A stretch of 64,000 bases of DNA, taken from Gammaproteobacteria bacterium (GTDB lineage: Bacteria; Pseudomonadota; Gammaproteobacteria; Acidiferrobacterales; SZUA-150). The DNA is taken from positions 113,827 to 177,826 of the forward strand of contig JAOUOD010000002.1 of NCBI GenBank assembly GCA_029880545.1, read 5' to 3'. Below, piece by piece: positions 37,772-58,651 of this stretch. A program made the position numbers and the translations under genes. The notes under the pieces were generated by a model that saw only the letters and a list, made by a program, of their open reading frames with translations, did not search any database and was not told where the DNA came from. How positions within the stretch are numbered: the stretch's first letter is position 1; every line of letters starts with the position of its first letter.

Positions 37772-39703
37772 CTACCAGATATTCTCATCGCTGGCGTTCC
37801 AGGCTTCCGTGATTCCATCGGTGCTCCATTCCTTGAATATCGATTTTCGGGCGGCAGTCTTGTCCAGTCGCTCAAGACTGCGGCTGCTGATTCCCCGGCC
37901 GATGCGGGTCGCCGTATCCTGCAGCACAGCATCTGTTTCATTCACCTTTTGAAGATGCCCGACCGCCCAGCCGGTCCTGTCTGTTTCGATTACATGCGGC
38001 GTAATCATGACAACGGTTTCCGTGTTAATGCTGGTTTTTTCGTGTGCCGAGAACAGTCTTCCCAGCAACGGAATCCGGCCAAGAATCGGCACACCACTGC
38101 GACTTTCCGACAGCCGCATCTTCATCAGGCCGCCAATAAATACTGTCTTGCCATCAGGCACCAGCAGCTGCGTGGTAACTTCCGTGGTCGACTGCGAAGG
38201 AATGCCCTCGGATACACTGCCGGTACTGACTTCGGGATGGATATCCAGCATTACGCGCCCGTCTTCATCGACAGAAGGCTTGACCTTCAGTATGACACCC
38301 GATTCAAGAAACTGGACATTTTCGGTTGTAACCTGGTTTACCGTGGTCGTCACCTTGTAACCGATCCTGTCACCTATAATTACGGACGCCTCCTGGTTTT
38401 CAAGCGCCAGCAACTTGGGTGTCGACAATGTTCTCACGCGGCCATCCGAACTCAGTGCACTCAATGCCAGGTCCATCTTCGGCGTAACAAGATCAAGGAA
38501 AAATCCCGGCGATCCCGGCAACGACAACCCCTGGGCCCCGTAAGTCCGGACGCGATCCCCGGAATCAAACAGCCGCGTCCAGTCGACGCCAAAAGTCTCG
38601 GAGTCATCCAGGATCACTTCAAGTATCTTGGCCTCGATCAGAATCTGTTTGGGTTGCCTGTCGAGTTCCCTTATGAGTTTGCCGATACTCGCGAGGTATT
38701 CGGGAAGCTCTTCAATAACAAGAAGATTACGATCCTCAAGCGTGGTGATCTTTCCGTATCGCGACAGGTGGTTTTTCAGAATTGATTCAATGGATTTGGG
38801 CTTTGAATACTGCACCTTGAATGACTGCAGCTTCGTAACACCGCCATGGCCATTCTTCCCGGCATCTGAAGGATTGACTATAAAATAGCTGCCGCCCTTG
38901 CTTTCAACTGCATAGCCACCGACCCTGGCAATGGAGTGAATGGCCTGCTTGATGCCCACGTCATAAAGGTTAAGCGAAACCTTTCCGCTAACGTCCTTGG
39001 ACAGCAGGATATTTACCCGGTGCTTTCTGGACAACATTGCCATGACTTCAGACAACTCTACGTCGTTCAGGTTCAGCGTGACCCGGTCAGACGCTATCGA
39101 ATTCACACGCCTTGCCGGAATACTGTTTCCCGCGGCCACCTTTTTCCGTGAATCCTCGCGCAGCATGTCAACCAGGTCAGGCAGCGTAATGCCGCTGTCA
39201 TGCTGATCCGGCGTCAACACAAAAATATCAAATCGCCTGTTCTTTCTGCGACCGGATTCCATCCGGTTGTCAGCCACCGGGTAATCAGGACCAAGACCGG
39301 TTGCGACAACCTGGTCCGCGGACAGCGACAGTACCCGCCTGATATAATCCGCCACCTTGCGCGCCCTTGCCTGGGACAACACGTAGTTGTCGGTAAACTC
39401 GCTTCGGGCTGCCTGCGAAAGCGGGCTGTTATCGGTATGGGAAAAAACATATACGCGACCAACCGGTCGACTTCTGCGAAGCGTCAGCAGCCGGTCAAGA
39501 TCAACATAATCAGTATCAGACAATACGTTTAACCCGCGCGAGAACCCGGGTGAAAATACGATGATCTCCGAACGAATTCCGCCTTCCGGCTGATTGCTCG
39601 CGCCGTCAGGTTTTACGGGCTGTTCTGCCAGCGCAATGCCAGAAACTGCCTGCAACAGCAGTATCGCAACAAACACCAATACACTTTCCCTAGCGTTCAC
39701 CAT
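37772..39703 (-). CDS. secretin (PilQ/GspD/MshL family) with N-terminal OmpA-like peptidoglycan-binding domain
   Basis: It has a signal peptide. Residues ~45-163 are OmpA_C-like (VYVFSHTDNSP...NYVLSQARARKVADYI...GLGPDYPVADN...GRRKNRRFDIFV). An N0/N1-type region follows (LNLNDVELSEVMAMLSRKHRVNILLSKDVSGKVSLNLYDVGIKQAIHSIA). The secretin domain reads TPKLLALENQEASVIIGD...GVPILGRIPLLGRLF. Confidence 0.9.
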   Translation of the reverse strand: MVNARESVLVFVAILLLQAVSGIALAEQPVKPDGASNQPEGGIRSEIIVFSPGFSRGLNVLSDTDYVDLDRLLTLRRSRPVGRVYVFSHTDNSPLSQAARSEFTDNYVLSQARARKVADYIRRVLSLSADQVVATGLGPDYPVADNRMESGRRKNRRFDIFVLTPDQHDSGITLPDLVDMLREDSRKKVAAGNSIPARRVNSIASDRVTLNLNDVELSEVMAMLSRKHRVNILLSKDVSGKVSLNLYDVGIKQAIHSIARVGGYAVESKGGSYFIVNPSDAGKNGHGGVTKLQSFKVQYSKPKSIESILKNHLSRYGKITTLEDRNLLVIEELPEYLASIGKLIRELDRQPKQILIEAKILEVILDDSETFGVDWTRLFDSGDRVRTYGAQGLSLPGSPGFFLDLVTPKMDLALSALSSDGRVRTLSTPKLLALENQEASVIIGDRIGYKVTTTVNQVTTENVQFLESGVILKVKPSVDEDGRVMLDIHPEVSTGSVSEGIPSQSTTEVTTQLLVPDGKTVFIGGLMKMRLSESRSGVPILGRIPLLGRLFSAHEKTSINTETVVMITPHVIETDRTGWAVGHLQKVNETDAVLQDTATRIGRGISSRSLERLDKTAARKSIFKEWSTDGITEAWNASDENIW

Positions 39704-40025
39704 TTACTTTCACCCTGACTCGCACATCATTCTTTGAAAAAATTGCTTCGCCTTCTCCAACCCAATCCAGCCTGTACCCGCCGATCTCCTCACCAACAGT
39801 GACAATGGTGCCACCAACATTTGCCAGCCCGTTCTGCATTGATGCCAGTGTTGCCCGGAGATCAATGCCATGCGTACCGGAGCCGCTCCCCTGGCCAGCA
39901 GCCACGTCAACGCCGCTTGGTCGTATAAACGGGTTGTTCTTCAAGGGTTCCCGCCCAATATCATCTGCTGCTGCCGTAGGCAGCAGGATGCAAAACACAA
40001 TAATGGACTTGTGGATTGTCATCAT
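39690..40025 (-). CDS. small periplasmic PilP / GspC-HR-like assembly protein
   Basis: 111 aa with a signal peptide. The C-terminal beta-rich segment is GGTIVTVGEEIGGYRLDWVGEGEAIFSKNDVRVRVKV. Its position is between the PilO-like gene and the secretin, and it overlaps the secretin start by 14 nt. Confidence 0.5.
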   Translation of the reverse strand: MMTIHKSIIVFCILLPTAAADDIGREPLKNNPFIRPSGVDVAAGQGSGSGTHGIDLRATLASMQNGLANVGGTIVTVGEEIGGYRLDWVGEGEAIFSKNDVRVRVKVNGER

Positions 40026-40579
40026 ATGGCCTTGTATGAAACTATGGTCAACTTCAGTGAAAGTATGGGAACCTGGTCAACATAGCGAACCGGAAGAAAC
40101 TGGAACCGGTTGATTACGATAAACCCGATTTCGCTGTTCAGTTCCTGCAGCCATCGAACCAGGTTCATGTAGTCGCCGCGAATTTCTATATCAAACAGGA
40201 TCTCCCGGAAAACATGGACGGTGTTGCCGGCCTTCGGTTTGATACCGGCCAGTTCGACTTCATTACGCCACGAAATCTTCTGGAGCCGCTCTATGATGTA
40301 CGCTTCCATTTTCTCCATGGACAGGTGTGCCATGTCGCCATGCAGCGTCTTGCCCAGGCTGTTAACTTCGGCGGTCATCTCTGCCAGCTGGCCTGGCAGT
40401 TCCCTGCCATCTTCAACAACAAGCACAAGATTGCTTCGTACTTTCTTTGTCCCCTGGTACTCCTTGATACGCGGATAGACAATATAGACAAATGACAATG
40501 TCACAATAAGCAACAGTAACAGGCCAAATGCCAGCCTGGCCTGTCTCGGGTCAGAAATTGCGGAGTCAATCATGTTCAT
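40022..40579 (-). CDS. PilO / GspM-like bitopic inner-membrane assembly protein
   Basis: 185 aa with a single TM (LAFGLLLLLIVTLSFVYIV), then a coiled-coil and a ferredoxin-like C-terminal part (FDIEIRGDYMNLVRWLQELNS). It has ATGA overlaps on both sides. Confidence 0.68.
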   Translation of the reverse strand: MNMIDSAISDPRQARLAFGLLLLLIVTLSFVYIVYPRIKEYQGTKKVRSNLVLVVEDGRELPGQLAEMTAEVNSLGKTLHGDMAHLSMEKMEAYIIERLQKISWRNEVELAGIKPKAGNTVHVFREILFDIEIRGDYMNLVRWLQELNSEIGFIVINRFQFLPVRYVDQVPILSLKLTIVSYKAI

Positions 40580-41226
40580 GACTTGTCCTGCCCGACAACG
40601 ACTGCGAGATCGAAATCCACAACCGCCATGCTCCTGAACTTCCTTTGCTCGGTTCGGACTATGCGCACTTCACTGATCGCCTGCTGGTCAATCAGGCGCC
40701 GGACAAACTCCGATAGCGCGGCATGATCACGCGCCTGGCCTCTTATGGTCATATGACTGTTAATCAGCCAGCCTTCCTGGCTTGCCTGGTTGCCCTGCTT
40801 CGGAATGACAACGAAATAGCCGGTATTCACCGCTTTTTCATTTTCCTTTACAGCTTCCCCGGATCGCTGGAATTCCCATTGATCAAACCAGACATCGTTA
40901 CCCTGCAACGCCTTGTCAACGGATACGAGCATGTGCGCGGCTTCGGTTCCGCCACGCAACCCCTTCAGCAAATCCAGCTGCTGCTGATAGTCATCCCGTT
41001 TTTGCTGCAGATCATTCAATTCTGTTCTTTGTTGCGCAGTGATCGCCTGCTTTCTTTGCAGATCCTTGATGTCGCGCTTCAAACCGGAAATCTGGTAGCT
41101 GATTCCCGCATGCGCTGCGAACTCGACCAGCGCCAGTATCGAGACAGACATGCCAAGCAGGCGCAGCCATTTGATTCGATCAAGTCGCTGCCGGTACTCG
41201 ACCGGGATCAGGTCAATACTAGCCAT
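40576..41226 (-). CDS. PilN-like fimbrial assembly protein
   Basis: MASIDLIPVEYRQR... is the conserved IDLIP/INLLP N-terminus. It is followed by a single TM and then a coiled-coil. Confidence 0.75.
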   Translation of the reverse strand: MASIDLIPVEYRQRLDRIKWLRLLGMSVSILALVEFAAHAGISYQISGLKRDIKDLQRKQAITAQQRTELNDLQQKRDDYQQQLDLLKGLRGGTEAAHMLVSVDKALQGNDVWFDQWEFQRSGEAVKENEKAVNTGYFVVIPKQGNQASQEGWLINSHMTIRGQARDHAALSEFVRRLIDQQAISEVRIVRTEQRKFRSMAVVDFDLAVVVGQDKS

Positions 41227-42355
41227 GTTGATCCAGCCCTCTCAGGGCAAGGCCGGTAGCAATAGCCATATCGGTATTCGAACCGACGCTGCCGCCTGAA
41301 CAGGGGCCATTCTCGTTTGTCAGTGTCCGCAGCGGGTCGGGTATTGTGATGGCGATGTTGGCCATTCTTCCAAGCAGCCTGTCTACACCGGGCCACCTGG
41401 AAATTACCCCAAGCAGGTATATCCGGTTAGCTGACTTTCCGTGCGTCTGGGCGGCGGCATAAATCAGCGACCGGTTAACTTCGTCAACCAGTTTCATGAA
41501 CCCCGGCTTGACGATTTCGCGAATACCCTCGGCAATATCAGGGCGGCTGACCAGACCGTCTTTTTCCGGGTCTTCGTCCGCGAACAGGCCATTCTTGATT
41601 ATCAGGTCACGCGCCTCTTCCTGGCCCATATCCAGCATCTCGCTCAATTCGAAAAGCAGGTCTGCCTCGCCAAAGTTGACCTTGTGATCAAACAGAACCC
41701 GATCGCCGGAAATCATGGTCATGAAGCTGATCTGGTAACCCGTGCTCACAACCAGGATATTGCTCCCGGGGTCTTCGCCGGAAATAATGGTTATCAGGCG
41801 ATTTATAGCTGATGGCGCCACTTCCATAGCGGTAATACTCAACCCGGAGTGACGCAGACGCTCAAGAAACGCTATGACATCGGATTTCCTGGCGAAGGCA
41901 ACCATCGCCAGCCTGTCATCATCCGCACCGCCTGACCTGATTGGCAGGTAATCAATAACGTACTCGTCCAGGCTTCCATCTATCCGGTTTCGCATTATCT
42001 TGATGATCGCGTCTTCGTCCGCCTGGTCCTTGCCCAGCTGGTACGTTACCGGAACAATTCTGGCCATTCCCGGAAGTGCTGCAACAACGGCACTGGAGCC
42101 GGAAAATCCGTTTTGCTTCATCAACCGGCGCAAGGTAGCTTTCATTTCTCCCGGCTCAGACAGGAATGCATCCCGCTTCGTCGGATAGTCGGCGGACGCG
42201 CAACCGACCAGGTATTTTTCACCATTGGCACGCATTCCGATTTGCACCATATGTATTTTTTCCATCGAGAACTCGATGCCTATGGGTCCGAGCACTGAAC
42301 GACGGGAAACAAAACGATCGTACCTGGCAATTTTTTGCAGCAATTGGGACATCAT
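41219..42355 (-). CDS. PilM-like actin-fold cytoplasmic assembly ATPase-like protein
   Basis: 378 aa. Elements include GIEFSMEKIHMVQI..., LPGMARIVPVTY..., MVAFARKSDVIAFLERLRHSGLSITAMEVAPSAINRL, and VVSTGYQISFMTMISGDRVLFDHKVNFGEADL.... It overlaps the pilN-like start by 8 nt. Confidence 0.8.
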   Translation of the reverse strand: MMSQLLQKIARYDRFVSRRSVLGPIGIEFSMEKIHMVQIGMRANGEKYLVGCASADYPTKRDAFLSEPGEMKATLRRLMKQNGFSGSSAVVAALPGMARIVPVTYQLGKDQADEDAIIKIMRNRIDGSLDEYVIDYLPIRSGGADDDRLAMVAFARKSDVIAFLERLRHSGLSITAMEVAPSAINRLITIISGEDPGSNILVVSTGYQISFMTMISGDRVLFDHKVNFGEADLLFELSEMLDMGQEEARDLIIKNGLFADEDPEKDGLVSRPDIAEGIREIVKPGFMKLVDEVNRSLIYAAAQTHGKSANRIYLLGVISRWPGVDRLLGRMANIAITIPDPLRTLTNENGPCSGGSVGSNTDMAIATGLALRGLDQHG

Positions 42356-43521
42356 ACGTAATGCCGCTCTGCGTCGTTGTATATCTCGTGCACAATGACG
42401 CTGTTCGATTCGGTTTCGGCCTTGCTTTGTCTTTTGGCCCTGTACAGAACTTCATCAGCCTTCTTGAACAGGTGAGTCAAGGCAATCATGCGCCCGTCGA
42501 CAACGCTGGCCATGCCAATACTTATATTGATGTCTACAACATTACCGAGATGATTCGACTTTGTGCCGGCCAGAACTTCGACTGCATTCTCCAGCATCTG
42601 CTTTGGCTCCAGTCCTGGGAACAATAATGCGAATTCGTCTCCGCCCAGCCTGATCATGTGAGTGCTGTCTCTTATGCCCTGTTTTACCGCGCCGACCACC
42701 TTTCTCAGCGCCAGGTCACCGTAATCGTGCCCGTAGGTATCATTGATTTCCTTGAAATTATTTACATCGATAATGGCAAAATGGTAATGCATCGACCTGC
42801 GTATATAGTCTTCCACTATCATTTCATAATTGGTTTCCAGGAACCGGCGATTCCATGTCCCCGTCAGCGGATCTGTATAGGAAAGCAGTTCAAGCTCACG
42901 GTGCGCGTTTTCCAGGTTGTAACGGGTAATAATGTCATCCTTTCTGATACCGACATTCCGGGCAACAACGGTCAACGTCGTCAGCCCCGAACCTAGCATC
43001 AAAAACTGGAGGATCCACACGGTCTGAATGTCAAACCGGCCCTTTACACTCAACGTGGAAATCGTGAATACAACGTATACCAGCGTCACTACGATTGACG
43101 CCTCGCGAAGACCCCAGGGCACGAGCGGCACAACCATGAACAGCAACACTGCGCTCGACAACAACGCGGCACTGAACACACCGGTCTTGTGTGCAAGCAA
43201 GACAAACGCGGTTCCGGCGATAATCAGCAGCGCCATGCCAAGCAGGTACAGTATTTGTGTATCCTTGATAACCCGGGAAGAAACGGCAACATGCAGGGAC
43301 AGAAGTGTCAGCATGGAAAACGTATAGACGTAGGCGGTACCAAAGCCGAGCATGGCATACAGCGTGGTGGCAGCCCCGAGTAACAGCACAGACACCACCC
43401 CGAGAACCATGATCCCCTTGCGAACTTCCTCGCGAATAAACGATTCCGCGTAGTCAGTCAGCTCACCTTTTCGGAATTGAGTAACCGACCAAAGCTTGGT
43501 TAGTAGCCTGAATGCATCCAC
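42352..43521 (-). CDS. membrane-anchored diguanylate cyclase (GGDEF)
   Basis: About 190 aa of TM helices are followed by YTDPLTGTWNRRFL...IDVNNFKEINDTYGHDYGDLALR...IRLGGDEFALLF. The stop overlaps the pilM-like ATG (ATGA, 42352-42355). Confidence 0.88.
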   Translation of the reverse strand: MDAFRLLTKLWSVTQFRKGELTDYAESFIREEVRKGIMVLGVVSVLLLGAATTLYAMLGFGTAYVYTFSMLTLLSLHVAVSSRVIKDTQILYLLGMALLIIAGTAFVLLAHKTGVFSAALLSSAVLLFMVVPLVPWGLREASIVVTLVYVVFTISTLSVKGRFDIQTVWILQFLMLGSGLTTLTVVARNVGIRKDDIITRYNLENAHRELELLSYTDPLTGTWNRRFLETNYEMIVEDYIRRSMHYHFAIIDVNNFKEINDTYGHDYGDLALRKVVGAVKQGIRDSTHMIRLGGDEFALLFPGLEPKQMLENAVEVLAGTKSNHLGNVVDINISIGMASVVDGRMIALTHLFKKADEVLYRAKRQSKAETESNSVIVHEIYNDAERHYV

Positions 43522-43785
43522 TGCGTAACGCCTTATTTCCTGCTTTATATTTGATGGAATAACCGGTGCTGTATTGCCTGTTTCTATGTCGGCTGAAATA
43601 CATGATTCTTGAGGTATCCCGCGACAGCATTCGGCATGTGCTCATGGCCTCACTGATGTACGCAAAGCGGTGATTTTCGGGGAATTAATCCTGATACGTG
43701 AGCGATCTCCACGATGACGATGACATCAGTCGATCAATTATGATTACACTAAAATTCACCTGTATCGCCCATAGCGATAAAAAAA

Positions 43786-46530: not shown

Positions 46531-46556
46531 GCAGAAAGACGGTTATGGTTAACTGG

Positions 46557-46862
46557 TTAAAGAATCAATGCCGCCCAGAAAGCCGAAGCAATCACCAGCA
46601 AAATGAATCCGGTGGCACGCGGGTTACGCTCTGTCCAGGCATCCCAGACAATGGCCCTGCCGGCAACAGTGCGGTTCATGCGGTTTTCCAGTTGCTGCTC
46701 ACCCGGCACACCCAGGCGCAAGGCCGCGATCATGCGCTCGCCCCAGGGTTGATTGAGTGTGCGCTGTAGCCGCAACGACCACTGCGGCAAAAACAGGTAC
46801 AGGCATGCAACAACAGTTACCGGCAATGCAACGAGGAACAATATGGTTTCGTTAAGGTTCAT
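46557..46862 (-). CDS. small two-TM membrane protein (unknown)
   Basis: 101 aa with a strong AAGGAG RBS 5 nt upstream of the ATG. It has hydrophobic N- and C-terminal helices and lies between pseudopilin genes. Confidence 0.55.
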   Translation of the reverse strand: MNLNETILFLVALPVTVVACLYLFLPQWSLRLQRTLNQPWGERMIAALRLGVPGEQQLENRMNRTVAGRAIVWDAWTERNPRATGFILLVIASAFWAALIL

Positions 46863-46913
46863 GAGTTACTCCTTTCAGGAAGTCTGGCTTGCGTATATGG
46901 CTGAATTCATCCG

Positions 46914-49554: not shown

Positions 49555-49817
49555 GTCAAAACCCCTGTTAATTAGCATCCACGAAACAGACAGGGCATTG
49601 TCCCAAGTTCTGTTCCCAACGAATATCGGTAACTCCTATTGCTACTTTATGTTCAAACGGGGAGAAAACAAGGCGTATAACATTAAATAACAATCTGAAT
49701 ATTTCGCTTTATCAATTTCACGGTAAATGTATTTTTTTGTGAAAATATTTTCCGGCAATACCCTTTGCCGTGTTCAGAACATGAACAATGCAATCCCGAG
49801 GCAATAATTTTTCACAA

Positions 49818-51005
49818 TCAATGCACCGCGCGAGAAAGCTTGAAAATAGGAAGGATTAGTGAACTTACGAGCAACCCGACAACCAGTCCCATGACGATCA
49901 ACATCAGCGGTTCTGCCAGTCTTGCCAGTGTCTTTAACTGCTTGGACAACTCGCGGTCATAATAGTCAGAAATCCTGGCCATAACCAGGGGCAGGCTGCC
50001 GGTTTCTTCGCCGGTTTTTACCATTTGCCTGACAACGGGAGGAATGAACTTGCTGTTGCTGAACTCCGGGCCGATTCCCTTGCCATCCTGGACGCCGTTT
50101 TGCATTCTCGTTATAAACTGCTGGAAAACGCTGTTTTGAACCACGCCCCTGCAGGAGTTCAGGGTGTCCACAATACCGACTCCATTTGCCAGCGATGTTC
50201 CCATAACTCGCAGGAACTGGCTCAGGTATATTTTTACAAATACGTCCTTTAACACAGGTATGCTGAGTTTTGCCCTGTCAAGTTGCAAGCGTCCTGATTC
50301 TGTTTGCATCCAGTAGCGTATTAACGCAAGGATTCCGAATATTGCCGCGATCACAAACACCCAGTAATGCCGCAAGATGTCGCTGGCTCGCATAAGCACT
50401 ATGGTTGATAGCGGTAACTGATCGGCGATTGCCTTGAACATGTCCTCGAACTTGGGAAACACGACGACCAGGACAAACGCCACCACCGCCAGGGAAAACA
50501 ACACAAGAAAAATCGGGTATGACATGGCTGACATTACCGTGCTTCGCATCTGCTGCTGCTTTTCATCAATGTCGTAGAGCTGGACCAGAACCTTGTCCAT
50601 AAATCCGCCGTTCTCACTGGCGGCAACCAGGTTTACATAAGACGGGGGAAACAGTTCGGGATGATTTGACAACGCAAACGAGAATGATTTTCCTTCGGAA
50701 ATTGCGGCACACATCGACTCGAGCATGGCGACATATGACTGATCCTCGGATTGACTCTTCATCGCTTCCAGTGCCGGTACCAGGCTTACGCCGGTACTGA
50801 GCAGCAGGGATAACTGTTCGGTGAAAAACATCCTGTCTGTAACTTGCAGGCTCCTGGGCCGGCGAAACGAAGCCTCCAGGGATGCAAGCAACCCGCTTAC
50901 ATTCAAGTCCGCGCGCTGGCTGCCCGTGTTTTTGCTGTCGATTGGCACGGCGGGACTCCTAGATGTTAATCGATCTCGATATTTCTTCCAGCGTGGTTTC
51001 ACCAC
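49818..51005 (-). CDS. GspF/PilC-family inner-membrane platform protein
   Basis: 395 aa with two T2SS-F repeats (FFTEQLSLLLSTGVSLVPALEAM... and FLRVMGTSLANGVGIVDTLNS...). The C-terminus ends with a PLMLIVMGLVVGLLVSSLILPIF helix. Confidence 0.9.
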   Translation of the reverse strand: MVKPRWKKYRDRLTSRSPAVPIDSKNTGSQRADLNVSGLLASLEASFRRPRSLQVTDRMFFTEQLSLLLSTGVSLVPALEAMKSQSEDQSYVAMLESMCAAISEGKSFSFALSNHPELFPPSYVNLVAASENGGFMDKVLVQLYDIDEKQQQMRSTVMSAMSYPIFLVLFSLAVVAFVLVVVFPKFEDMFKAIADQLPLSTIVLMRASDILRHYWVFVIAAIFGILALIRYWMQTESGRLQLDRAKLSIPVLKDVFVKIYLSQFLRVMGTSLANGVGIVDTLNSCRGVVQNSVFQQFITRMQNGVQDGKGIGPEFSNSKFIPPVVRQMVKTGEETGSLPLVMARISDYYDRELSKQLKTLARLAEPLMLIVMGLVVGLLVSSLILPIFKLSRAVH

Positions 51006-53013
51006 GCTTCACCCTCTCCAGGCCGTCATCAAACAACGTGGCGACATTCATTTCACGGAGATAGGTGTCGAGCTGATCGCGACTCGGATTCGAAATAATC
51101 AGCTTCTGAAGGGATTCGGTTGCAACCAGTACTTCATGCACGCCCTGCCTGCCTTTGTAACCGGAATCGTAACAGTCGTTGCACCCGCGGCCACGGGCAA
51201 GCTTGATGCCGGCATCCGCATTCCATCCGAACCGCTCGACCAGTTCCATCTCTGCCAGGTAGGTGGTCTTGCAGGACGGGCACACTGTTCGCACCAGGCG
51301 CTGGGCTACAACGCCTATCAGCGCCGATGACAACAGGTATGGCTCGACACCCATGTCGATCATACGGGTGACGGCGCCAATACTGTCGTTGGTGTGCAGT
51401 GTCGACAACACCAGATGACCCGTTAGCGCCGCCTGCACCGCGATTTCGGCCGTTTCCCGTTCGCGTATTTCGCCAACCATGACAATATCCGGGTCCTGCC
51501 GAAGAACATGCTTCAGAACCTTTGCGAATGTCAGGCCGATATTCGCCCGCACTTCATTCTGATTGATGATGTCGACCTGGTATTCCACCGGGTCTTCAAT
51601 GGTGACAATATTCTTCTCGATGCTGTTGAGATAGTTCAGCGCCGCGTAGAGTGTTGTGGTTTTACCGCTACCTGTCGGGCCGGTTACCAGGATCAGTCCG
51701 TAACTATGACCCAGCAGGCCGCCAAAGGAATCAACATTTCTCCTGGTCATGCCCAGTTTGTTGATATCGAGAATTGCCCTGTTCTTGTCAAGTACGCGCA
51801 ATACCACCTTTTCACCATACAGGCCCGGCAATGAACTGAACCGAAGATCAACCGGACGACCTCGTGTATGCACCTGGATTCGACCGTCCTGTGGCAGGCG
51901 CCGTTCCGATATGTCCAGGTTGGACATAACCTTGAGACGCGATACCACGGCCGAATGCAGCTCGCTTCTTAATGCCATGATCTCGTACAGGACGCCATCC
52001 ATTCGCAATCGAATGCGGGTCTTGTCACGTGAAGGCTCAATATGGATATCACTGGCACCATCCTGCACAGCACGCTGAATGATTGAATTTACCAGGTTGA
52101 TTACCGGGCTGCCGGCCGCCAGTTCATCAATCGTGTCCGGGTCGTCCTGACGCTCACTGCTGATAACCTCAAAGTCATCATCGACCTCGGCAATCAGGTC
52201 CGCGGTGAGATCTCGCTCCGAAAATATTTCGTTGAGCAGCTGAAAGATCCCGTCCTTTTCTGCAATTACCGGGTTAACCTGGCACTGCAGATGCTCCTCG
52301 ACCTCCTCAAGCGCGGGAATGGCCTGCGGGTCGGTGGTCGCAACCGTGACATGGTTCCGGATCTTGAACAGTGGCAGCAGTTTCAGCCGGGTACAGATAT
52401 CCTTGCCCAGTTCCCTGGCAACGGCCACATCACACAAACCGGTCCGCAGGTTGACAAATGCCAGGCCCAGTTGCTCACTGACAGCCTCCAGGACTACACG
52501 TTCCGGCGCCCATCCCTTGTCGACAATAATCTGCCCCATGCGCCTTCCCAGTTTTCTCTGCAACTGGATTGCTTCTTCTATGCGCGCTTCACTCACGACC
52601 CCCTTGTTGACCAGTATGTCTCCCAGCCTTGCCTTTTTGGGCTCCAAATGTTCATGAGTCGAAATGGTTTCATCATTGTCATCTATACAGGGTATGTAGT
52701 GACTTACGCCGGTAATGGAGAATATTTCCTTTAACAACGAGTTAATCCGGGTCAGCTTGAGCCAACCGCCCCGGTGAATCAGTTTGTCATTTATATCAAG
52801 AAGCTGCTCGATAGATGTGCTGTCGATAGCCTGTACGGATGCGAGATCAAGAACAATCCTGTCTTCTCCGACCTCCGTACATTCATCCACGCATTCGGAC
52901 AAATGTTCCATCATGCCTTCGCTGTCCAGGCGCTTCCTGGGCGCCAGGCATGTCATGACGCCTATGCGCGTACGAACCACATTTTCGGATTTTTGTTCCG
53001 CTGGCGAAATCAT
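50959..53013 (-). CDS. GspE/PilB/MshE-family secretion ATPase with N-terminal STAS-like domain and MshEN c-di-GMP-binding motif
   Basis: Walker A is GPTGSGKTT. Asp/His boxes are present, along with the tetracysteine CPSC...CNDC. Residues 129-181 match the MshEN motif, and residues ~12-108 are STAS-like. The ATG overlaps the stop of the GGDEF-EAL gene (ATGA, 53010-53013). Confidence 0.92.
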   Translation of the reverse strand: MISPAEQKSENVVRTRIGVMTCLAPRKRLDSEGMMEHLSECVDECTEVGEDRIVLDLASVQAIDSTSIEQLLDINDKLIHRGGWLKLTRINSLLKEIFSITGVSHYIPCIDDNDETISTHEHLEPKKARLGDILVNKGVVSEARIEEAIQLQRKLGRRMGQIIVDKGWAPERVVLEAVSEQLGLAFVNLRTGLCDVAVARELGKDICTRLKLLPLFKIRNHVTVATTDPQAIPALEEVEEHLQCQVNPVIAEKDGIFQLLNEIFSERDLTADLIAEVDDDFEVISSERQDDPDTIDELAAGSPVINLVNSIIQRAVQDGASDIHIEPSRDKTRIRLRMDGVLYEIMALRSELHSAVVSRLKVMSNLDISERRLPQDGRIQVHTRGRPVDLRFSSLPGLYGEKVVLRVLDKNRAILDINKLGMTRRNVDSFGGLLGHSYGLILVTGPTGSGKTTTLYAALNYLNSIEKNIVTIEDPVEYQVDIINQNEVRANIGLTFAKVLKHVLRQDPDIVMVGEIRERETAEIAVQAALTGHLVLSTLHTNDSIGAVTRMIDMGVEPYLLSSALIGVVAQRLVRTVCPSCKTTYLAEMELVERFGWNADAGIKLARGRGCNDCYDSGYKGRQGVHEVLVATESLQKLIISNPSRDQLDTYLREMNVATLFDDGLERVKRGETTLEEISRSINI

Positions 53014-55256
53014 TGTTGACGCTGACCATTGTGCACGCTATGAATGCTTGAAGTATCCGGTTCACACTCAAAGTGCTGGATCAGTGGTACCGGGAAACCG
53101 TAGGCGTATCCCTGCCCATAGGATATTCCCAGCGCTACGAGGCGGGCCTCGATTTCGGCATTCTCGACGTATTCCGCTACGGTCTTTATACCCATTACGG
53201 TTCCGACATGATTGATCGATGAGACCATCGCCTCTGAAATCGGATCTGTAACAATACCCTTGACCAGCATTCCGTCAATTTTCAGGTAATCAACATCGAG
53301 ATTCTTGAGATAGACAAACGAACTCAGGCCGGAGCCAAAATCATCCAGCGCGAAGCTGCATCCCCTTTCCCGTATAGTTGATATAAATTCCTTCGCGTCG
53401 TCTATATGTGAAACAGCCGCGGTTTCAGTTACTTCAAAACATATCTGGCTCGCATCCATTTCCGACCTGTCTATGATATTGACCAGAAATTCCAGGAACG
53501 ACTTGCTGCTGATGGACTGGCCGGAAAGATTAACGGCAAATACGGAACCGTGCGGAATCCTGTTGCCGTTTTCGGCGAGAATCCTGAACAGGTTGGTTAC
53601 AACCCATCGATCTATCTTTGGCATCAGGTTGTAACGTTCGGCGGCCGGGATGAAGTTCCCGGGCGCCACGACCTCGCCGTCTTCGAGACGCATTCTTACC
53701 AGGATTTCCACATGAACAGCGTCACTGTGCTGCTGAAGATCCTTGATTGCCTGTCCGAACAATTCGAAACGGTCATCAATCAATGCTTCCCTTATCCGGC
53801 CTACCCAGTGCATTTCATCCTTGCGGGCGAGCATATCCGTATTGGTGGAACTGAATGCCTTTACCTGGTTCTTGCCAATATCCTTAGCCGCCATGCAGGC
53901 TACCTCGGCAGCATTCAATGCCTCGGATACAAGCCTTGTACCCGCGTCTATGCAGGCTACACCGATACTGACGCTGATATCAAAGACCGAGGATTCCCAT
54001 TCGAACGGGCTCTTTCCGATTGCCTGCCTGATGTCCTCCGCCAGTCTTTCGGCGCGCTCAATAGGGCAACTTTCCAGCAGCACGCCGAATTCATCACCGC
54101 CTATCCTGGCGACAATATCCAGGCCCCGTACATACTTGTGAATGGTATCACCCGCCATCCTGATCAGCGCATCGCCGGCTTCATGACCGGCATTCTCATT
54201 CACGATTTTCAGCTGGTCCAGGTTCAAATGAAGGACACAGTGCTCCATGCCGGACATCTGGGCCGACTCGATACTCTTGCCTACATAATATTCGTAACTC
54301 TTTCTTGTATGCAGTCCGGTCAGGGAGTCGTAGGTCCTGTTCAGAAGCTTGGTGACCTTGCTTGCCATTACTTCCAGGAGGCTGCGATCACTGTTGGTAA
54401 ATTCCCTTTTGCCGCACATGCTGATTGTCAGCAATACTCCTGTCACGGCGCCATAGCCGGTAAACACCGGGCTGCACAATAATTTGTCCCTCATGCCCGC
54501 AATCAGCCCTTCTGCTTCAGACTGGTGATTGACCACGATACTCTTTCCGGTCTCCTTGACGTGCCTGAGCACCCTGTTCCTCAGCTCCGGCAACAGTATT
54601 GTGCCACTGCACATGGCACTGTCCTTGTTTCCAAGTGTTATGACAACATTTCGCTCAGGCAGAAAAAGAACAACGATTTCAACATCAAGATAGGAAAGGC
54701 ACTGTTTTACCAGGCTCGATAGCGTCTTGTTGATATCCTCGAATCCGGCAGTCTCTTCCTTGACATGATAGACAAGGTTCAACTCCTCGTAGCGCTCTCC
54801 AAGCTCCTCGGCCATCTCGTCGAGTTCCTTGTTGAGCATCAACTCGGTCTTGATGCACAGGGCAACATCATCCATCAGCTTTACGGTTCCGGGTATGTAA
54901 CCGGTAACACCATCCTGGTTTCGGTAAGAAAGCAACGCAGATACGTTGGCTATGTGACAGTCATTTTCAGTAACTATTCCGGCCTGGTAGAGTATTTCTG
55001 TTTCGCTCAGCTTGTGAAACGTAATTTTTCTGTCATGAACGCTGCTGAATTTCCCGCCGGGGAACAGGTGGATACTGGTGTCTGAATTATTGCTGGACCA
55101 GACGGTGAAGCCGTCCGATGTATACACGAGAAAACTTTCCACTTCAGCGACGCCGGATTCAAGCAGTCGCATGTACTTGGAGTAATCGATAGCCGCAAGA
55201 GATCTTCTATCCACCGGGAACCTCGTCTGCGGCAATCCTGGTTTCATTGTAATCAT
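53010..55256 (-). CDS. GAF-GGDEF-EAL c-di-GMP turnover protein
   Basis: The GGDEF domain has an RxxD I-site (RGLDIVARIGGDEFGVLL). The EAL domain carries EILVR, NLS, EVTE, DDFGSG, KIDG, EYVE and QG elements. The N-terminal region is GAF-like. The start is uncertain: 55256 overlaps the RR gene by 50 nt, and the alternative M is at 55172. Confidence 0.88.
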   Translation of the reverse strand: MITMKPGLPQTRFPVDRRSLAAIDYSKYMRLLESGVAEVESFLVYTSDGFTVWSSNNSDTSIHLFPGGKFSSVHDRKITFHKLSETEILYQAGIVTENDCHIANVSALLSYRNQDGVTGYIPGTVKLMDDVALCIKTELMLNKELDEMAEELGERYEELNLVYHVKEETAGFEDINKTLSSLVKQCLSYLDVEIVVLFLPERNVVITLGNKDSAMCSGTILLPELRNRVLRHVKETGKSIVVNHQSEAEGLIAGMRDKLLCSPVFTGYGAVTGVLLTISMCGKREFTNSDRSLLEVMASKVTKLLNRTYDSLTGLHTRKSYEYYVGKSIESAQMSGMEHCVLHLNLDQLKIVNENAGHEAGDALIRMAGDTIHKYVRGLDIVARIGGDEFGVLLESCPIERAERLAEDIRQAIGKSPFEWESSVFDISVSIGVACIDAGTRLVSEALNAAEVACMAAKDIGKNQVKAFSSTNTDMLARKDEMHWVGRIREALIDDRFELFGQAIKDLQQHSDAVHVEILVRMRLEDGEVVAPGNFIPAAERYNLMPKIDRWVVTNLFRILAENGNRIPHGSVFAVNLSGQSISSKSFLEFLVNIIDRSEMDASQICFEVTETAAVSHIDDAKEFISTIRERGCSFALDDFGSGLSSFVYLKNLDVDYLKIDGMLVKGIVTDPISEAMVSSINHVGTVMGIKTVAEYVENAEIEARLVALGISYGQGYAYGFPVPLIQHFECEPDTSSIHSVHNGQRQQ

Positions 55257-55605
55257 TAAGCATATCCAGGATTCTCCTGGTGCTTGCAGGTTTTTCGATA
55301 AACATCAGGTTCCTGATCTTGCGGGACCACTCGCGGTGTTCCAGCTCGGTCCGCGAAGTCGAGACAAAAATAAGGAATTCCCGATCAGGCATTTCGGCTT
55401 CTATTTTTTCGCACAATTCCCGGCCGGTCATTCTCGGCATTGCAATATCCGTTATCAGGACATCAGGCCGTCTTTCCATGATTTTTTCAAATGCCAGCTG
55501 CCCGTTTGGCGCTGACTCGACCTGGTAGCCATCACGCTCCAGCGCCAGCCTCAGCACCCTTATTACATGTGGCTCGTCATCAGCAATCAGTATGTAGCCA
55601 CCCAT
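55207..55605 (-). CDS. single-domain response regulator (CheY-like receiver)
   Basis: ILIADDEPHVIRVL...PDVLITDIAMPRMTG...FVSTS shows receiver-domain acidic pocket residues and a phospho-acceptor Asp. No output domain is present. The start shares one nucleotide with the kinase stop (TAATG). Confidence 0.88.
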   Translation of the reverse strand: MGGYILIADDEPHVIRVLRLALERDGYQVESAPNGQLAFEKIMERRPDVLITDIAMPRMTGRELCEKIEAEMPDREFLIFVSTSRTELEHREWSRKIRNLMFIEKPASTRRILDMLNDYNETRIAADEVPGG

Positions 55606-57548
55606 TACACTGCCTCCATGATGATGCCGCTGTCTTTCCGGAAGACAATGATGAACTCGGTACCTTCTCCGAGCACGCTCTCAACCAGCAACTCACCGTT
55701 ATGAAGCTCGATAATTTCCTTCGCCAGCGGGAGCCCGAGTCCGTGTCCGGGACGGTCTCTCACTTCTTCGCTTTCGGACCTGAAGAACTTGTCATAAATA
55801 TGGCTGATATCATCTTCAGAGATGCCTATTCCTGTATCCCGTATTGATATTGTTATCGACTGCGCATCCTCGGTTACCGTCATGGATACCTTGCCGCCCG
55901 GCTTGTTATACTTTATGGCATTGGTAAGGATATTGTTGATTGCAATACGCATCAGGTCCTTGTCCGCCGAAATGGCGCTGACCTGGTTCGGCAAATCAAT
56001 GCTGAATTCGCAATTCTTGTTGTAACCGTTTCTCGATATATTCTCGAAGGCATCCTCGACCATCTCCTTCAGCTTTACGCGCTGCCGGCTGATCTGCATT
56101 CCGCCGACTTCAAACCGTGTCAGGCTCAGCAGGTTGTTAATCAATGATGCAAGGCGCTCGACTTCGTCACGTATGACGTTTGACGCATCAATCTGGAACT
56201 CCCTGGATTTCCCTTCCTCTCCGATCAGTGCCTCGCTGTACATCGTCAGCACATTAAGCGGAGATTTCAGCTCATGGGCAACATGGGCAACAAATTCGGC
56301 CCGGCTCTGCTTGGCCAGCACTTCTTCCGAAATGTCATGGAACACAACCAGTGAACCGTAGGTTTTTTTCCGGTCCTTCACCGAAAACAGCGGGAATGCT
56401 TCTACGGAATAGGTCTTGTTTTTTTCATTCTCCGGAACAAATGACCAGTTATTGCCACGCTTGTTGGCCGGGGACAGGGTTTTTCCCCTTGGTTGATAAC
56501 CCTGCATTGCCGGGTGATTGACATACTCAATCAACCGCTTGCCCCGCAGGTCGTCTGACTGAATATTCAGGATATTGGATATCCTCGAATTGGCCATATT
56601 TACAATGCCGGTTTCATCCAGGACAACCACCGGGTCCGGCAACGACTGCAAGACCATTTCAATGCGTTCGCGCTTGTAGTTCAGGAACTTGGCCGAGGCA
56701 TCCAGATCGAAGTGACTCTTTTCGAGACTGCTGACCCGGTTGCCGGTATATTCGATATAGTGATTGATGCAACCGATCAGTTCACCGATCTCGCCGCTGG
56801 CTGTCACGTCTATGGGCTGATAGTCATTCCTGTTTGCCATGTCGTGGATGGCAGTACAAGCCGTTCTTATCGGCCTGATTTCCTTTTTCACCAGGTAGTA
56901 GGACAGCGTAGTCAGCAGAAACACCATCAGCGCCATCGTAGAAACAAATGGCAGGTACGTGCTGTCTATTCCATATCCTGGCTCAAAATAGGCAATCCTG
57001 ACATGACCGTAAAGCTCGCCCGATAATATGACCGGTGCGTGAAATTCGATGAAGTTCTTGTTACGACTTTCTCCCGGTATGGTACGACGCCCGATCCATG
57101 AAGACGGCTCTTCCTTTATCCTGAGCTCAGGCACAATTACACCTGACTTGGCTACCTCGCGGAGCTTCGCGCCGGAGCGATCTACAACAGCAACATAGGC
57201 GAATTCAGGCGTGGTCAGGATTTCCTTCAACACTCTCAGAACACCACCAGTCCCGGATTCAGTTACCAGATCCGACAGTGGCAAATCGGAAAGGATGCGC
57301 GCCAGGCTTACACCTTGCGCCTGGATAAACTCCATCCTGGAATCACGCCGGTTATCAAACATCATCAGGGTGATAAAAATGATCACCAATAACGTCATAC
57401 CGATCATGATCAGGCCGAGACGCTCGTTTTCAAGATTGGCTATACCACGCCGAGTAATCAATTCGGTATCCACCTGTCTGCCTGTATTATCAACCGCTTC
57501 AAGTATCGGCAGCATAATATGGGCCTTTAAAAAACGTGCCGCATGCAC
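55605..57548 (-). CDS. membrane sensor histidine kinase (periplasmic loop-HAMP-PAS-HisKA-HATPase)
   Basis: It has two TM segments flanking a ~150-aa loop, then a HAMP domain, a PAS domain (LQSLPDPVVVLDETGIVNMANS), the H-box VAHELKSPLNVL, the N-box NAIKYNKPGG, and DTGIGI / GHGLGL. Confidence 0.88.
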   Translation of the reverse strand: MHAARFLKAHIMLPILEAVDNTGRQVDTELITRRGIANLENERLGLIMIGMTLLVIIFITLMMFDNRRDSRMEFIQAQGVSLARILSDLPLSDLVTESGTGGVLRVLKEILTTPEFAYVAVVDRSGAKLREVAKSGVIVPELRIKEEPSSWIGRRTIPGESRNKNFIEFHAPVILSGELYGHVRIAYFEPGYGIDSTYLPFVSTMALMVFLLTTLSYYLVKKEIRPIRTACTAIHDMANRNDYQPIDVTASGEIGELIGCINHYIEYTGNRVSSLEKSHFDLDASAKFLNYKRERIEMVLQSLPDPVVVLDETGIVNMANSRISNILNIQSDDLRGKRLIEYVNHPAMQGYQPRGKTLSPANKRGNNWSFVPENEKNKTYSVEAFPLFSVKDRKKTYGSLVVFHDISEEVLAKQSRAEFVAHVAHELKSPLNVLTMYSEALIGEEGKSREFQIDASNVIRDEVERLASLINNLLSLTRFEVGGMQISRQRVKLKEMVEDAFENISRNGYNKNCEFSIDLPNQVSAISADKDLMRIAINNILTNAIKYNKPGGKVSMTVTEDAQSITISIRDTGIGISEDDISHIYDKFFRSESEEVRDRPGHGLGLPLAKEIIELHNGELLVESVLGEGTEFIIVFRKDSGIIMEAV

Positions 57549-57655
57549 GGTGATAAGCTCTGATGAGTTCTATCGATTTCTCAGGTATAAAAACTAGATT
57601 AAACAGCGGTAACGATTCAAGCCTTATGTCGTAAAACATTGTAGATATACGATTA

Positions 57656-58651
57656 TTAAGTGCCCCGTTGACGATCGATTGTTAACTCCCGCAACATTCC
57701 GTCGCGCCATAACTTCAGAACCAGGGCCGATTGCTCTCCCGCTGTCAGCATTTCCCCGATTTCATACATACTTTTATTGGCCGTGTCCGCGTGATTTATG
57801 GACAGGATCATATCCATCTGTTGAACACCGTACTTGTGGGCCGGACCATTCCTGGTCAAGCCGGTTATCATCGGGAAATATTCATTTCCGTTCAGTGTCG
57901 TAATCACGAAACCGAGCCCGGTTTTGAACGTGCCCGCAGGCACATTATCAGCGCGGAACGAGGACACAGGCAGGTTCTTCGTAATCAGTCTCACGATCAA
58001 CTGGCCGGCTATCCTCGGATCACTGACAGACGACATACCGGTACCCACACTGTTCCATACCGATTGCAGCCGCATGCGATCAAATATTGCCAGTTCGACT
58101 TCCAGTTGGGCGCCCGGGCCACTCACGGAATCTCCTGCAACCGGATCGTGAGCCGCGCCGACATAGTCCGACCGGTCCATTTTTCCCCACGACGGCAATG
58201 TCTCGGGGAGTTGCGCCAGGTCAGATGAACGAGCGCTGTTCCTGTATTGAAAAATGTCTGTGCCTGGCGCCCACCTGGGGCCGGATTCAACACCGGCCCC
58301 GAACAAACCTTTTTTTGATCCCGGTCTTGCCAGTATCGTCACCAGGAAATCCGGCTTCTCATTGGCGCGCACCCAGCGATAGCCCCGACCTTCGAGCTGG
58401 TTGCGCGCCTGGAATGCCAGGTGATAATCAATGGCATCCATATCATTTTGTGGCATGTCATTAACCAGCATGGATGGCGGAATCATGGAAAAGGTGCGAT
58501 AGGAGGACAAATCCTGCCCGGGTGCCCGGGTGACTTCGATAACAGGCCTGTATTCCGGTGTTACCGGCTTCATGAGCGAGCCGGCACAACCAGCCAGCAC
58601 GATCATGAATGATGCAGCCATCATGCGCTGGGCTAACTTGCTCGGTGACAT
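57656..58651 (-). CDS. lipoprotein with C-terminal PDZ domain
   Basis: The lipobox is MIVLAG|CAGS. The C-terminal ~90 aa are PDZ-like (GLGFVITTLNGNEYFPMITGLTRNGPAHKYGVQQMDMILSINH...LVLKLWRDGMLRELTI). Confidence 0.7.
   Translation of the reverse strand: MSPSKLAQRMMAASFMIVLAGCAGSLMKPVTPEYRPVIEVTRAPGQDLSSYRTFSMIPPSMLVNDMPQNDMDAIDYHLAFQARNQLEGRGYRWVRANEKPDFLVTILARPGSKKGLFGAGVESGPRWAPGTDIFQYRNSARSSDLAQLPETLPSWGKMDRSDYVGAAHDPVAGDSVSGPGAQLEVELAIFDRMRLQSVWNSVGTGMSSVSDPRIAGQLIVRLITKNLPVSSFRADNVPAGTFKTGLGFVITTLNGNEYFPMITGLTRNGPAHKYGVQQMDMILSINHADTANKSMYEIGEMLTAGEQSALVLKLWRDGMLRELTIDRQRGT

Follow-up and report, generated by a model that had tools for sequence, protein, structure and literature searches.

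We analysed a 64,000-nucleotide (64 kb) stretch of gammaproteobacterial DNA from contig JAOUOD010000002.1, here called the window, whose minus strand carries at positions 37772 to 58651 a set of type IV filament genes together with a sensor kinase, a response regulator and enzymes of cyclic di-GMP (c-di-GMP) turnover. Comparison with related genomes shows that this locus is a real conserved cluster and not a chance adjacency. Judged from its sequences, it is better read as a distinct, uncharacterised clade within the type IV filament superfamily, and less well as a chimera of a type II secretion system (T2SS) and a type IV pilus, the 'hybrid' that a first-pass annotation had seen in it; the mixed traits behind that name are present. 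The output of the locus could well be a c-di-GMP-gated filament presenting a variable tip adhesin, a prediction to which we give an even chance.

Pfam and NCBIfam profiles were run on the 18 open reading frames (ORFs) of the locus, which an ORF map places on the minus strand at the coordinates first annotated. The packing proved as tight as described: ten junctions are overlaps of 1-50 bp and most of the remaining gaps measure 14-51 bp, with three wider ones between a PDZ lipoprotein gene and the kinase gene (107 bp), between the platform and pilin genes (~240 bp) and between the genes of the K-type tip protein and of a membrane GGDEF protein (264 bp). Both ATGA overlaps noted earlier were read directly, at 53010-53013 (GGDEF-EAL stop/ATPase start) and at 42352-42355 (membrane GGDEF stop/pilM start). 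Pattern scans of the locus for sigma-70 promoters, terminators and sigma-54 sites gave results at or below chance, so no operon substructure can be claimed, and an Rfam search of the locus (E ≤ 1) returned nothing relevant, which indicates that it holds no c-di-GMP riboswitch.

To place the locus among relatives, one genome per GTDB species was scanned with the ATPase. This gave 531 related stretches, of which the best 53, 54-65% identical, covering the STAS region and mostly from gammaproteobacterial metagenome-assembled genomes, were taken as the family loci. Carriers include Sedimenticola, Ectothiorhodospiraceae, Thiogranum, Woeseiaceae, Ca. Thiodiazotropha, Oleispira and Litorivivens, symbionts of Escarpia, Lamellibrachia and Olavius (Gamma 3), and a few betaproteobacterial or other bins. 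According to tblastn and ORF/phmmer maps, at least 53 species-level genomes share a core in the order kinase, receiver, GGDEF-EAL, ATPase, platform, pilin, H, I, J, K, PilM, PilN, PilO, small protein and secretin. The GGDEF-EAL gene adjoins the ATPase gene in 52 of the 53 loci. The regulator is found in 47/53 and a kinase orthologue in 46/53, the remaining loci ending at contig ends, and no locus that extends far enough lacks either of them. Loci L018 and L031 carry the pilin-PilMNOP-secretin block upstream of the kinase, and L090 (3330-20528) has the order pilin-H-I-J-K-PilMNOP-secretin-PDZ-kinase-receiver-GGDEF/EAL-ATPase-platform; these three gene orders are circular permutations of the same system. 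Since the signalling block lies within the structural genes in every arrangement, the association is not due to chance. The first-pass annotation had considered that relatives might lack the signalling genes; instead, they keep the two-component pair and, with one exception, the GGDEF-EAL gene beside the ATPase. It had also proposed to follow the co-occurrence of the STAS ATPase, the OmpA-fused secretin and the 914-aa K protein: the ATPase and K are family-wide, whereas the OmpA fusion is not. Confined to a subclade or to the window are this fusion, the membrane GGDEF cyclase, the PDZ lipoprotein and a 101-aa ORF.

In one related stretch, L091 (5396-15132), kinase and ATPase are split and the platform is truncated. 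HDOD and GGDEF genes are still there, but none for the pilin, the minor pilins, PilMNOP or the secretin. Either the locus is decaying, or its state reflects indel errors of a long-read assembly.

The core component that defines the family is the extension ATPase (50959..53013, minus). As first annotated, it is a STAS-MshEN-GspE-type protein, and Pfam matched all three parts (STAS 38.4, MshEN 49.5 and T2SSE 452 bits). STAS occupies aa ~36-112, followed by two MshEN motifs at aa 128-180, MshEN_C, and the N2D/CTD with a CxxC...CxxC zinc site. An MshEN domain is recognised by two 24-residue RLGxx(L/V/I)(L/V/I)xxG(L/V/I)(L/V/I)xxxxLxxxLxxQ motifs with a 5-residue spacer. The window ATPase has this arrangement, RLGDILVNKGVVSEARIEEAIQLQ - RKLGR - RMGQIIVDKGWAPERVVLEAVSEQ, and scores 55 bits against NCBIfam NF053729 (cut-off 38). 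Its N-terminus is thus a predicted c-di-GMP receptor. Both MshEN motifs and the STAS domain occur in 53/53 family ATPases, and STAS Ser65, the canonical phospho-serine position, in 50/53. Neither an RsbW-type kinase nor a PP2C gene was found in the window locus or the relatives inspected, and a SpoIIAA/RsbV-type partner-switching set is accordingly absent from them. In literature on STAS with GspE, PilB or MshE, we found no description of a STAS-fused PilB/GspE ATPase or of such a locus.

A neighbour-joining (NJ) tree of the ATPase core, built with a small sampling of references, recovered the STAS-family ATPases as monophyletic (99% bootstrap) and neither nested in nor sister to any reference ATPase, the deeper nodes being without support. 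A HMMER search of 1.84 billion 50%-identity representatives gave no more than four clusters whose alignments begin in the STAS region, and the rest are at most ~46% identical. As characterised ATPases all come from public genomes, this suggests that none is a close relative of the STAS family. The window ATPase is equidistant from the PilF, GspE/EpsE and PilB structures (464-427 bits) and ~41-46% identical to long-GspE proteins of the Comamonas/Skermanella type. The nearest non-family ATPases (Planctomycetia and Omnitrophota, ~42%) lie in loci with the same E-F-pilin-minor pilins-K-PilM layout. This shared layout is therefore older than the STAS family and not a T2SS-only trait; the gene order that the first-pass annotation had taken as a T2SS trait is present, but it is not unique to T2SS. 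In the Planctomycetia locus L054 (4773-19358), four receiver-only regulators and two kinases lie directly upstream of an MshEN-type ATPase, and the locus continues with platform, pilin, minor pilins and a K-like protein up to a PilM-like gene at its end, without STAS or GGDEF-EAL. In the representative search, proteins of ~1,000 aa with two separate T2SSE-like stretches (P0160-P0178) rank just under the STAS family; they may be tandem or fused motor ATPases.

The ATPase is followed by a GspF/PilC-type inner-membrane platform (49818..51005, minus) with two T2SSF repeats (Pfam, 178 bits). The long ORF overlaps the ATPase by 47 bp, whereas the 376-aa start preferred by gene callers lies 10 bp past the ATPase stop; the true start is probably ~50948, giving 376 aa.

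Three core signalling genes precede the ATPase. The first encodes a sensor histidine kinase (55605..57548, minus) with sensor, PAS, HisKA and HATPase regions and transmembrane helices at aa 46-64 and 197-215, which enclose a ~130-aa periplasmic loop. Pfam matched PAS, HisKA and HATPase, in line with the PAS histidine kinase annotated earlier, and did not detect the HAMP domain annotated with it. The second, a receiver-only response regulator (55207..55605, minus), was called correctly (Pfam Response_reg, 79 bits) and keeps the phospho-acceptor Asp53 and Lys105. The third (53010..55256, minus) encodes a GAF-GGDEF-EAL protein, again as annotated, with Pfam matches to all three domains (GAF 28.5, GGDEF 106 and EAL 196 bits); its start codon is uncertain, with gene callers giving 734 or 748 aa. 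In the window protein, the GGDEF motif, the RxxD I-site and all EAL catalytic motifs (EILVR, EVTE, DDFGSG, KID, EYVE and QGY) are intact, the last amounting to the motif set of an active phosphodiesterase. Among 46 full-length orthologues, E[IVL]L[LV]R is kept in 46 and DDFG[TSA]G in 45, while the GGDEF motif is degenerate in 35 (for example GEGRF, GSDKF or DADVF), the RxxD I-site often being kept; the window protein belongs to the minority in which GGDEF, I-site and EAL are all intact. Because EAL is near-invariant and GGDEF mostly degenerate, the family-conserved activity of this gene is predicted to be c-di-GMP hydrolysis, i.e. that of a phosphodiesterase.

A second predicted c-di-GMP enzyme, a putative GGDEF diguanylate cyclase with 5-6 transmembrane helices, lies between the K gene and pilM (42352..43521, minus; Pfam GGDEF 112 bits) and has an intact GGDEF motif and no I-site. 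Its gene occurs in 9 loci, sometimes preceded by an HDOD gene, and is absent from L007, L012, L018, L030, L031, L043-L045 and L090. Two predicted c-di-GMP enzymes thus sit among the structural genes of the window locus, as first described, but only the GGDEF-EAL protein is core, the membrane cyclase being a subclade accessory.

Five proteins are of the prepilin type, i.e. one major pilin and four minor pilins of H, I, J and K type, and four of them have a prepilin leader of the form G|(F/I/L/M)xxxE. The major pilin (49018..49578, minus; N_methyl) has the leader G|FTLVEL and two conserved Cys. It had been called GspG-like and counted as a T2SS trait, which did not hold up: the GspG model gave 52 bits against a cut-off of 89 and covered only the N-terminal helix, a generic pilin feature. 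The family profile scored higher against Geobacter PilA-N (73 bits) than against GspG (46 bits), and PDB matches were confined to the N-terminal ~70 aa, the best being Geobacter PilA-N and T4a pilins rather than GspG; no PDB sequence match was obtained for the globular domain. In 42 orthologues, the major pilin has an unusually high median global identity of 52% and two invariant Cys, which places it between the ATPase (58%) and the platform (47%).

The three minor pilins H, I and J were confirmed by their leaders, with Pfam GspH supporting H, and I and J assigned by position. The GspH/FimU-type protein (48439..48987, minus) matched Pfam GspH (26.8 bits, cut-off 21) and N_methyl. The GspI/PilV-position protein (47945..48424, minus) matched N_methyl (24 bits) and weakly PilV, and has acidic DxDxDG-like repeats. 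The GspJ/PilW-position protein (46914..47945, minus) is 343 aa long with a G|MTMPEL leader, a sub-threshold N_methyl match and a long acidic DxDxDG-rich insertion, and shows a median identity of 49% in 29 orthologues. The acidic runs of the I and J pilins (46914-48424, minus), such as DDNGNGTIDDG, DDDGDGSVDED and DDDLDGTVDEG, match no Pfam family; in sequence, they resemble calcium-binding loops.

The fifth is the 914-aa protein at the K position (43786..46530, minus; NCBIfam DNRLRE 108.6 bits, Pfam CBM96 63 bits). The first-pass annotation had recognised it as a Glu5-less K/PilX-like protein, and indeed the K-family N-terminus profile aligned with GspK over the helix (hhalign probability 93%); the CBM96/DNRLRE and further beta-rich modules come in addition. 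A sequence search of the K N-terminal domain against PDB gave no match. The leader lacks Glu5 (G|YVLIT), as do those of all K orthologues, which are of the G|Y-I-L-L-P type. With 29 homologues, AlphaFold2 gave a confident model whose mean pLDDT (predicted local distance difference test) is 84. In this model, a long N-terminal helix packs on a small sheet in a pilin-like manner (aa 1-130), followed by a CBM96/DNRLRE jelly roll (aa 137-311), a repetitive beta domain (~334-566) for which Foldseek returned six-bladed NHL propellers at a target-normalised template-modelling (TM) score of ~0.55, and C-terminal beta-sandwiches for which it returned CBM22, reelin-repeat and glycoside hydrolase accessory modules. 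K orthologues span ~310 to ~1,700 aa, and the modules found on K homologues are of lectin type only (CBM96, LamG and pentraxin-like), with no catalytic domain among them. The founding CBM96 member binds alginate (PMC9971899), and K-type pilins with large insertions, like MshQ and PilY1, serve as tip proteins (PMC13533445). From sequence and model together, we predict that the 914-aa protein is a K-type apical pilin fused to an adhesin. By analogy, the fusion would be functionally equivalent to PilX + PilY1 or MshP + MshQ (PMC13533445). Caulobacter CpaL and Thermus ComZ (PMC13533445) are likewise Glu5-less apical minor pilins with a large extra domain, proposed to be tip adhesins or sensors; they belong to Tad and competence type IVa pilus (T4aP) filaments and carry inserted modules other than CBM96/DNRLRE, NHL-like propeller and LamG/CBM-like sandwiches. 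Literature on DNRLRE with pili contained no description of this locus type.

Behind the membrane cyclase follow the genes of the alignment complex. PilM is an actin-like cytoplasmic protein (41219..42355, minus) with a Pfam PilM_2 match of 62 bits (cut-off 27). PilN is bitopic (40576..41226, minus; Pfam PilN 25 bits, cut-off 22.8), and its N-terminal motif IDLIP is of the PilM-binding INLLP type. The bitopic PilO/GspM-type protein (40022..40579, minus) is a borderline call, with 20 bits for Pfam PilO (cut-off 22) and 18 bits for T2SSM_b, and it is conserved in relatives. The annotation of PilM, PilN and PilO is therefore supported by Pfam above cut-off for the first two and at the border for the third. 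A 111-aa secreted protein occupies the PilP position (39690..40025, minus); its orthologues in 7 loci always lie between PilO and the secretin. The earlier PilP-like label is thus supported by position but not by homology, as neither Pfam nor NCBIfam gave a match.

The secretin (37772..39703, minus) is OmpA-fused, as first reported, with Pfam matches to OmpA (39 bits), Secretin_N (40 bits) and Secretin (149 bits). From the N-terminus, an OmpA-like domain of the peptidoglycan-binding type is followed by N0, one Secretin_N repeat and the secretin domain. Annotation pipelines label it GspD; among solved structures, PilQ comes slightly closer to it than GspD. The OmpA fusion is shared by about 10 of the nearest 120 secretin relatives, most others being 450-490 aa long. 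Two relatives, P0061 and P0122, have SPOR where the window protein has OmpA, which suggests that peptidoglycan-binding modules have been swapped repeatedly on this secretin family.

Membership in named systems was judged by NCBIfam curated cut-offs, Pfam, tblastn, gene content and the NJ tree. The generic traits of the type IV filament superfamily, which holds hundreds of unclassified 'generic' systems (PMC6668835), are present: T2SSE at 452 bits, T2SSF at 178 bits, N_methyl on four proteins and Secretin at 149 bits. No component reached the NCBIfam cut-off for T2SS, T4aP or the mannose-sensitive haemagglutinin (MSHA) pilus. The scores (cut-offs in brackets) were 582 for GspE (630), 572 for PilB (676), 297 for GspF (424), 52 for GspG (89), 42 for GspH (80), 79 for pilM (TIGR01175; 133), 215 for PilQ (284), 203 for GspD (351) and 153 for MshL (250), in agreement with the first-pass view that the locus belongs to none of these families. 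Pairwise scores were alike against the reference loci, namely Aeromonas MSHA (L083), the canonical Yersinia T2SS (L086), the A. baumannii pilBC locus (L084) and two long-GspE T2SS variants from Comamonas (L085) and Skermanella (L088) with the order E-F-G-H-I-J-K-L-M-D. Searching the whole 64 kb by tblastn with reference proteins found no PilT, A24 prepilin peptidase, GspL, GspM or GspC. The absence from the window of a PilT and a prepilin peptidase, which had been claimed, is thereby borne out; PilT and ATPase-core queries retrieved only the locus ATPase within the 64 kb. For GspC/L/M, the queries were Yersinia GspL, GspM and the gene at the GspC position (annotated 'protein N'), and the sole Pfam/NCBIfam signal was the weak GspM/T2SSM_b match of the PilO-like protein. 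The replacement of GspC/L/M by PilM, PilN and PilO therefore stands. On the T2SS side, the mixed traits comprise the single locus, the E-F-pilin-H-I-J-K order and the lack of a retraction ATPase; on the pilus/MSHA side, they comprise the MshEN motif, PilM, PilN and PilO as separate proteins, and a short secretin (N0+N1) that carries a peptidoglycan-binding module.

If the locus makes a c-di-GMP-gated adhesive filament, its pilins would be matured by a prepilin peptidase encoded elsewhere, PilD of a separate T4aP system. An H-I-J-K complex would prime assembly on the PilC/PilMNO platform, and K, because it lacks Glu5, would sit at the filament tip, where its CBM96, propeller and lectin-like modules may bind polysaccharide or host glycan. 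The ATPase would polymerise pilin only with c-di-GMP in its MshEN site; V. cholerae MshE provides a precedent for such a gated motor (PMC4624772, PMC5013675, PMC7096442). The local c-di-GMP pool would be raised by the membrane cyclase (in the window's subclade) and lowered by the EAL enzyme. The kinase, sensing the periplasm, would phosphorylate the receiver-only regulator, which could act through contact with either the phosphodiesterase or the motor's STAS domain and so tie filament assembly to an envelope or environmental signal. Disassembly would proceed without a dedicated motor or with PilT borrowed from the T4aP system, and the secretin would be pinned to peptidoglycan via its OmpA-like domain.

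Several observations weigh against this proposal. The E-F-pilin-H-I-J-K order and the slightly higher GspE and GspF scores lean towards T2SS, and a pilin conserved nearly at the level of the ATPase is easier to reconcile with a periplasmic pseudopilus than with an exposed pilus. A single-sequence structure model of the major pilin was poor (pLDDT 51), and the NJ tree left the position of the ATPase clade at depth unsupported. Finally, three features are inferred: in which direction c-di-GMP exerts control, what the receiver acts on and what STAS does.

A bolder version, which we advance only tentatively, is that the family forms a new filament class in which signal input, second-messenger turnover and motor are wired as one module and a conserved stalk carries an interchangeable lectin tip. 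The motor would then integrate c-di-GMP via MshEN and a phosphorylation-dependent contact via STAS, the kinase and receiver controlling the EAL phosphodiesterase and/or docking on STAS, and sulfur oxidisers (Thiodiazotropha, tubeworm/Olavius symbionts, Sedimenticola and Woeseia) could attach in this way to particles or host surfaces. Such a dual-input principle of phosphorylation and c-di-GMP is not known for any PilB/GspE ATPase.

The main rival, which we regard as possible but rather improbable, is a c-di-GMP-gated T2SS-like machine, in which a short periplasmic pseudopilus built from the conserved pilin drives folded proteins out via the secretin. Its cargo might include K or unlinked substrates, in line with the proposal for PA14_29490 of P. 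aeruginosa. Besides the T2SS-side traits given above, three components score best against the curated models GspE, GspF and GspH, the long-GspE T2SS variants are the nearest annotated relatives in a plasmid collection, and pipelines name the secretin GspD. The ranking of ATPase over pilin over platform recurs in the single T2SS pair compared (Yersinia/Comamonas), where GspG likewise comes second among components, so that a highly conserved major (pseudo)pilin is common to both. An N-terminally extended ATPase is also shared, and PA14_29490 ('HxrA'), a T2SS-type ATPase shown to bind c-di-GMP, offers a precedent (PMC4624772). Membership in T2SS nevertheless fails on the missing GspC, GspL and GspM, in whose stead the locus has PilM/N/O, on the short secretin and on the cut-offs, as every curated T2SS model stays below its own. 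The secretin family, mostly 450-490 aa with N0 and one N-domain plus a peptidoglycan-binding module in the locus, differs from reference GspD proteins of 659-817 aa. In sequence, the globular domain of the pilin shows no relation to GspG, and K, with its giant lectin and propeller modules and its range of 310-1,700 aa, is unlike GspK. Canonical and long-GspE T2SS also differ from the locus in its built-in STAS domain, two-component pair and GGDEF-EAL protein, and no conserved candidate substrate gene lies beside the loci inspected.

A further reading, which we consider unlikely, is that the locus is a divergent member of a named system, either a T4aP paralogue or a pilus of the MSHA type, and that its regulators are ordinary neighbours; only the sequence divergence would then be new. 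MSHA comes close in many respects: it is a single locus with an MshEN ATPase, without a retraction ATPase or prepilin peptidase, with a GGDEF-EAL gene (MshH, in Aeromonas L083) and with a block of minor pilins, after which comes a very large tip protein of the lectin type (MshQ, PMC13533445). It mediates c-di-GMP-dependent surface attachment, which is also the likely output of the locus. Gene content and tree position speak against membership. The gene order differs, and MSHA has MshM, MshN, MshK and an MshI fusion where the locus has separate PilM and PilN. No MshM-like (ExeA-type AAA) or MshN (TPR) protein was found among the 18 genes by Pfam/NCBIfam; the TXSScan MSH model treats both as mandatory or typical (PMC6668835). 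PilM, PilN and PilO have no match in the Aeromonas MSHA locus. MSHA keeps MshP and MshQ as a separate pair, whereas the locus fuses the tip protein to the K-type pilin. The locus ATPase, with its STAS domain, lies outside the MshE clade and is sister neither to Aeromonas MshE nor to A. baumannii PilB (381 and 350 bits, against 405-425 for GspE references), and the secretin misses the MshL cut-off, as it does that of PilQ. The dedicated kinase and receiver set the locus apart as well, and its EAL domain looks catalytically competent.

T4aP, the other candidate, shares PilM, PilN with its INLLP-type motif, PilO, and a secretin with a peptidoglycan module (AMIN in PilQ, OmpA-like in the locus). 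It also shares the order H/FimU - I/PilV - J/PilW - K/PilX followed by a propeller-containing adhesin (PilY1), and a GGDEF-EAL protein, FimX, that works with the extension ATPase PilB (PMC11656802). Membership fails on the single-locus layout, the absence of PilT from the window (PilT and PilU are both absent from the locus) and the cut-offs. Furthermore, K pilin and adhesin are one polypeptide in the locus, the ATPase carries STAS, and the EAL domain appears active whereas that of FimX is degenerate. Against either named system, the STAS fusion and the kinase-regulator-EAL block are kept family-wide.

That the signalling genes are neighbours by accident and do not regulate the filament genes is very improbable and effectively refuted by synteny: two-component and GGDEF/EAL genes are abundant in such genomes, and the PDZ gene and membrane cyclase are not universally linked, but permutation of the structural genes (L018, L031 and L090) leaves the core block in place, both junctions show ATGA translational coupling, the ATPase carries a c-di-GMP receptor motif, and the loci, with ATPases 48-64% identical, are not near-identical copies of a recently transferred island.

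The c-di-GMP control of MshEN ATPases and the existence of GGDEF-EAL partners of PilB (FimX, MshH) are already established. What is new here is a clade, conserved and coherent, in which the regulatory module is hard-wired and the tip adhesin modular; the machine itself is of a known kind. In bacteria, type IV filaments have a central part in adhesion, secretion and the colonisation of hosts, and what switches their motors on is a matter of active research. In this clade, the receptor motor, the signal-degrading enzyme and the sensor kinase are co-inherited, in some members together with the signal-making enzyme, and local c-di-GMP signalling to a motor is therefore directly testable. The clade is found mainly in sulfur-oxidising or symbiotic Gammaproteobacteria, among them chemosynthetic symbionts of lucinid clams, tubeworms and gutless worms, where the K protein, with its variable lectin tip, may plausibly serve in attachment to hosts or particles. 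Literature on Thiodiazotropha and Sedimenticola pili contained no description of this locus type, and a genome study of lucinid symbionts treats such genes as 'type II secretion' from KEGG annotation (PMC12278820).

Two further ORFs of the 18 are not part of the core. The first gene in transcription order encodes a lipoprotein (57656..58651, minus) with a LAGC lipobox, DUF4136 (Pfam, 36.5 bits) and a sub-threshold C-terminal PDZ domain. It has no homologue in the relatives' loci L001-L053. A PDZ protein at the matching position recurs only in L090, with 19% identity across the PDZ domain, and nine other loci have unrelated genes and no PDZ gene upstream of the kinase. It was therefore rejected as a core component and is a doubtful accessory. 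The 101-aa ORF (46557..46862, minus), with two hydrophobic segments and no Pfam/NCBIfam match, occurs in no relative, where J and K abut or overlap directly; it is a window-only insertion between J and K and unsupported as a component. Downstream of the secretin, on the minus strand at 35586-37631, lie two genes that do not recur near related loci, one for a protein with a hemerythrin domain (37152-37631) and one for a polytopic membrane protein of 456 aa without Pfam match (35586-36956). The hemerythrin gene and three unknown downstream genes were rejected as members of the system, being without homologues near any related locus.

Housekeeping genes flank the locus, and a separate, canonical set of T4aP regulatory and pilin genes lies on the plus strand at 8581-12641. 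It comprises a PilS-like kinase with six transmembrane helices (8581-10281), a PilR sigma-54 activator (10291-11676), a sigma-54-like site TGGCACGGAAACTGCT (11885-11900) and a typical T4a pilin (about 12123-12641). From this pilS-pilR-pilA set, it follows that the genome also has a second, ordinary T4aP system. Directly after pilA, a low-GC stretch (12710-19065, plus; GC 0.46-0.50 against ~0.55 elsewhere) encodes a 642-aa polytopic protein with TPR, a family 2 glycosyltransferase (GT2), three S-adenosylmethionine (SAM) methyltransferases and a family 1 glycosyltransferase (GT1), with a tRNA-Arg(cct) nearby at 20150-20226. This stretch looks like a pilin or surface glycosylation island beside a tRNA gene.

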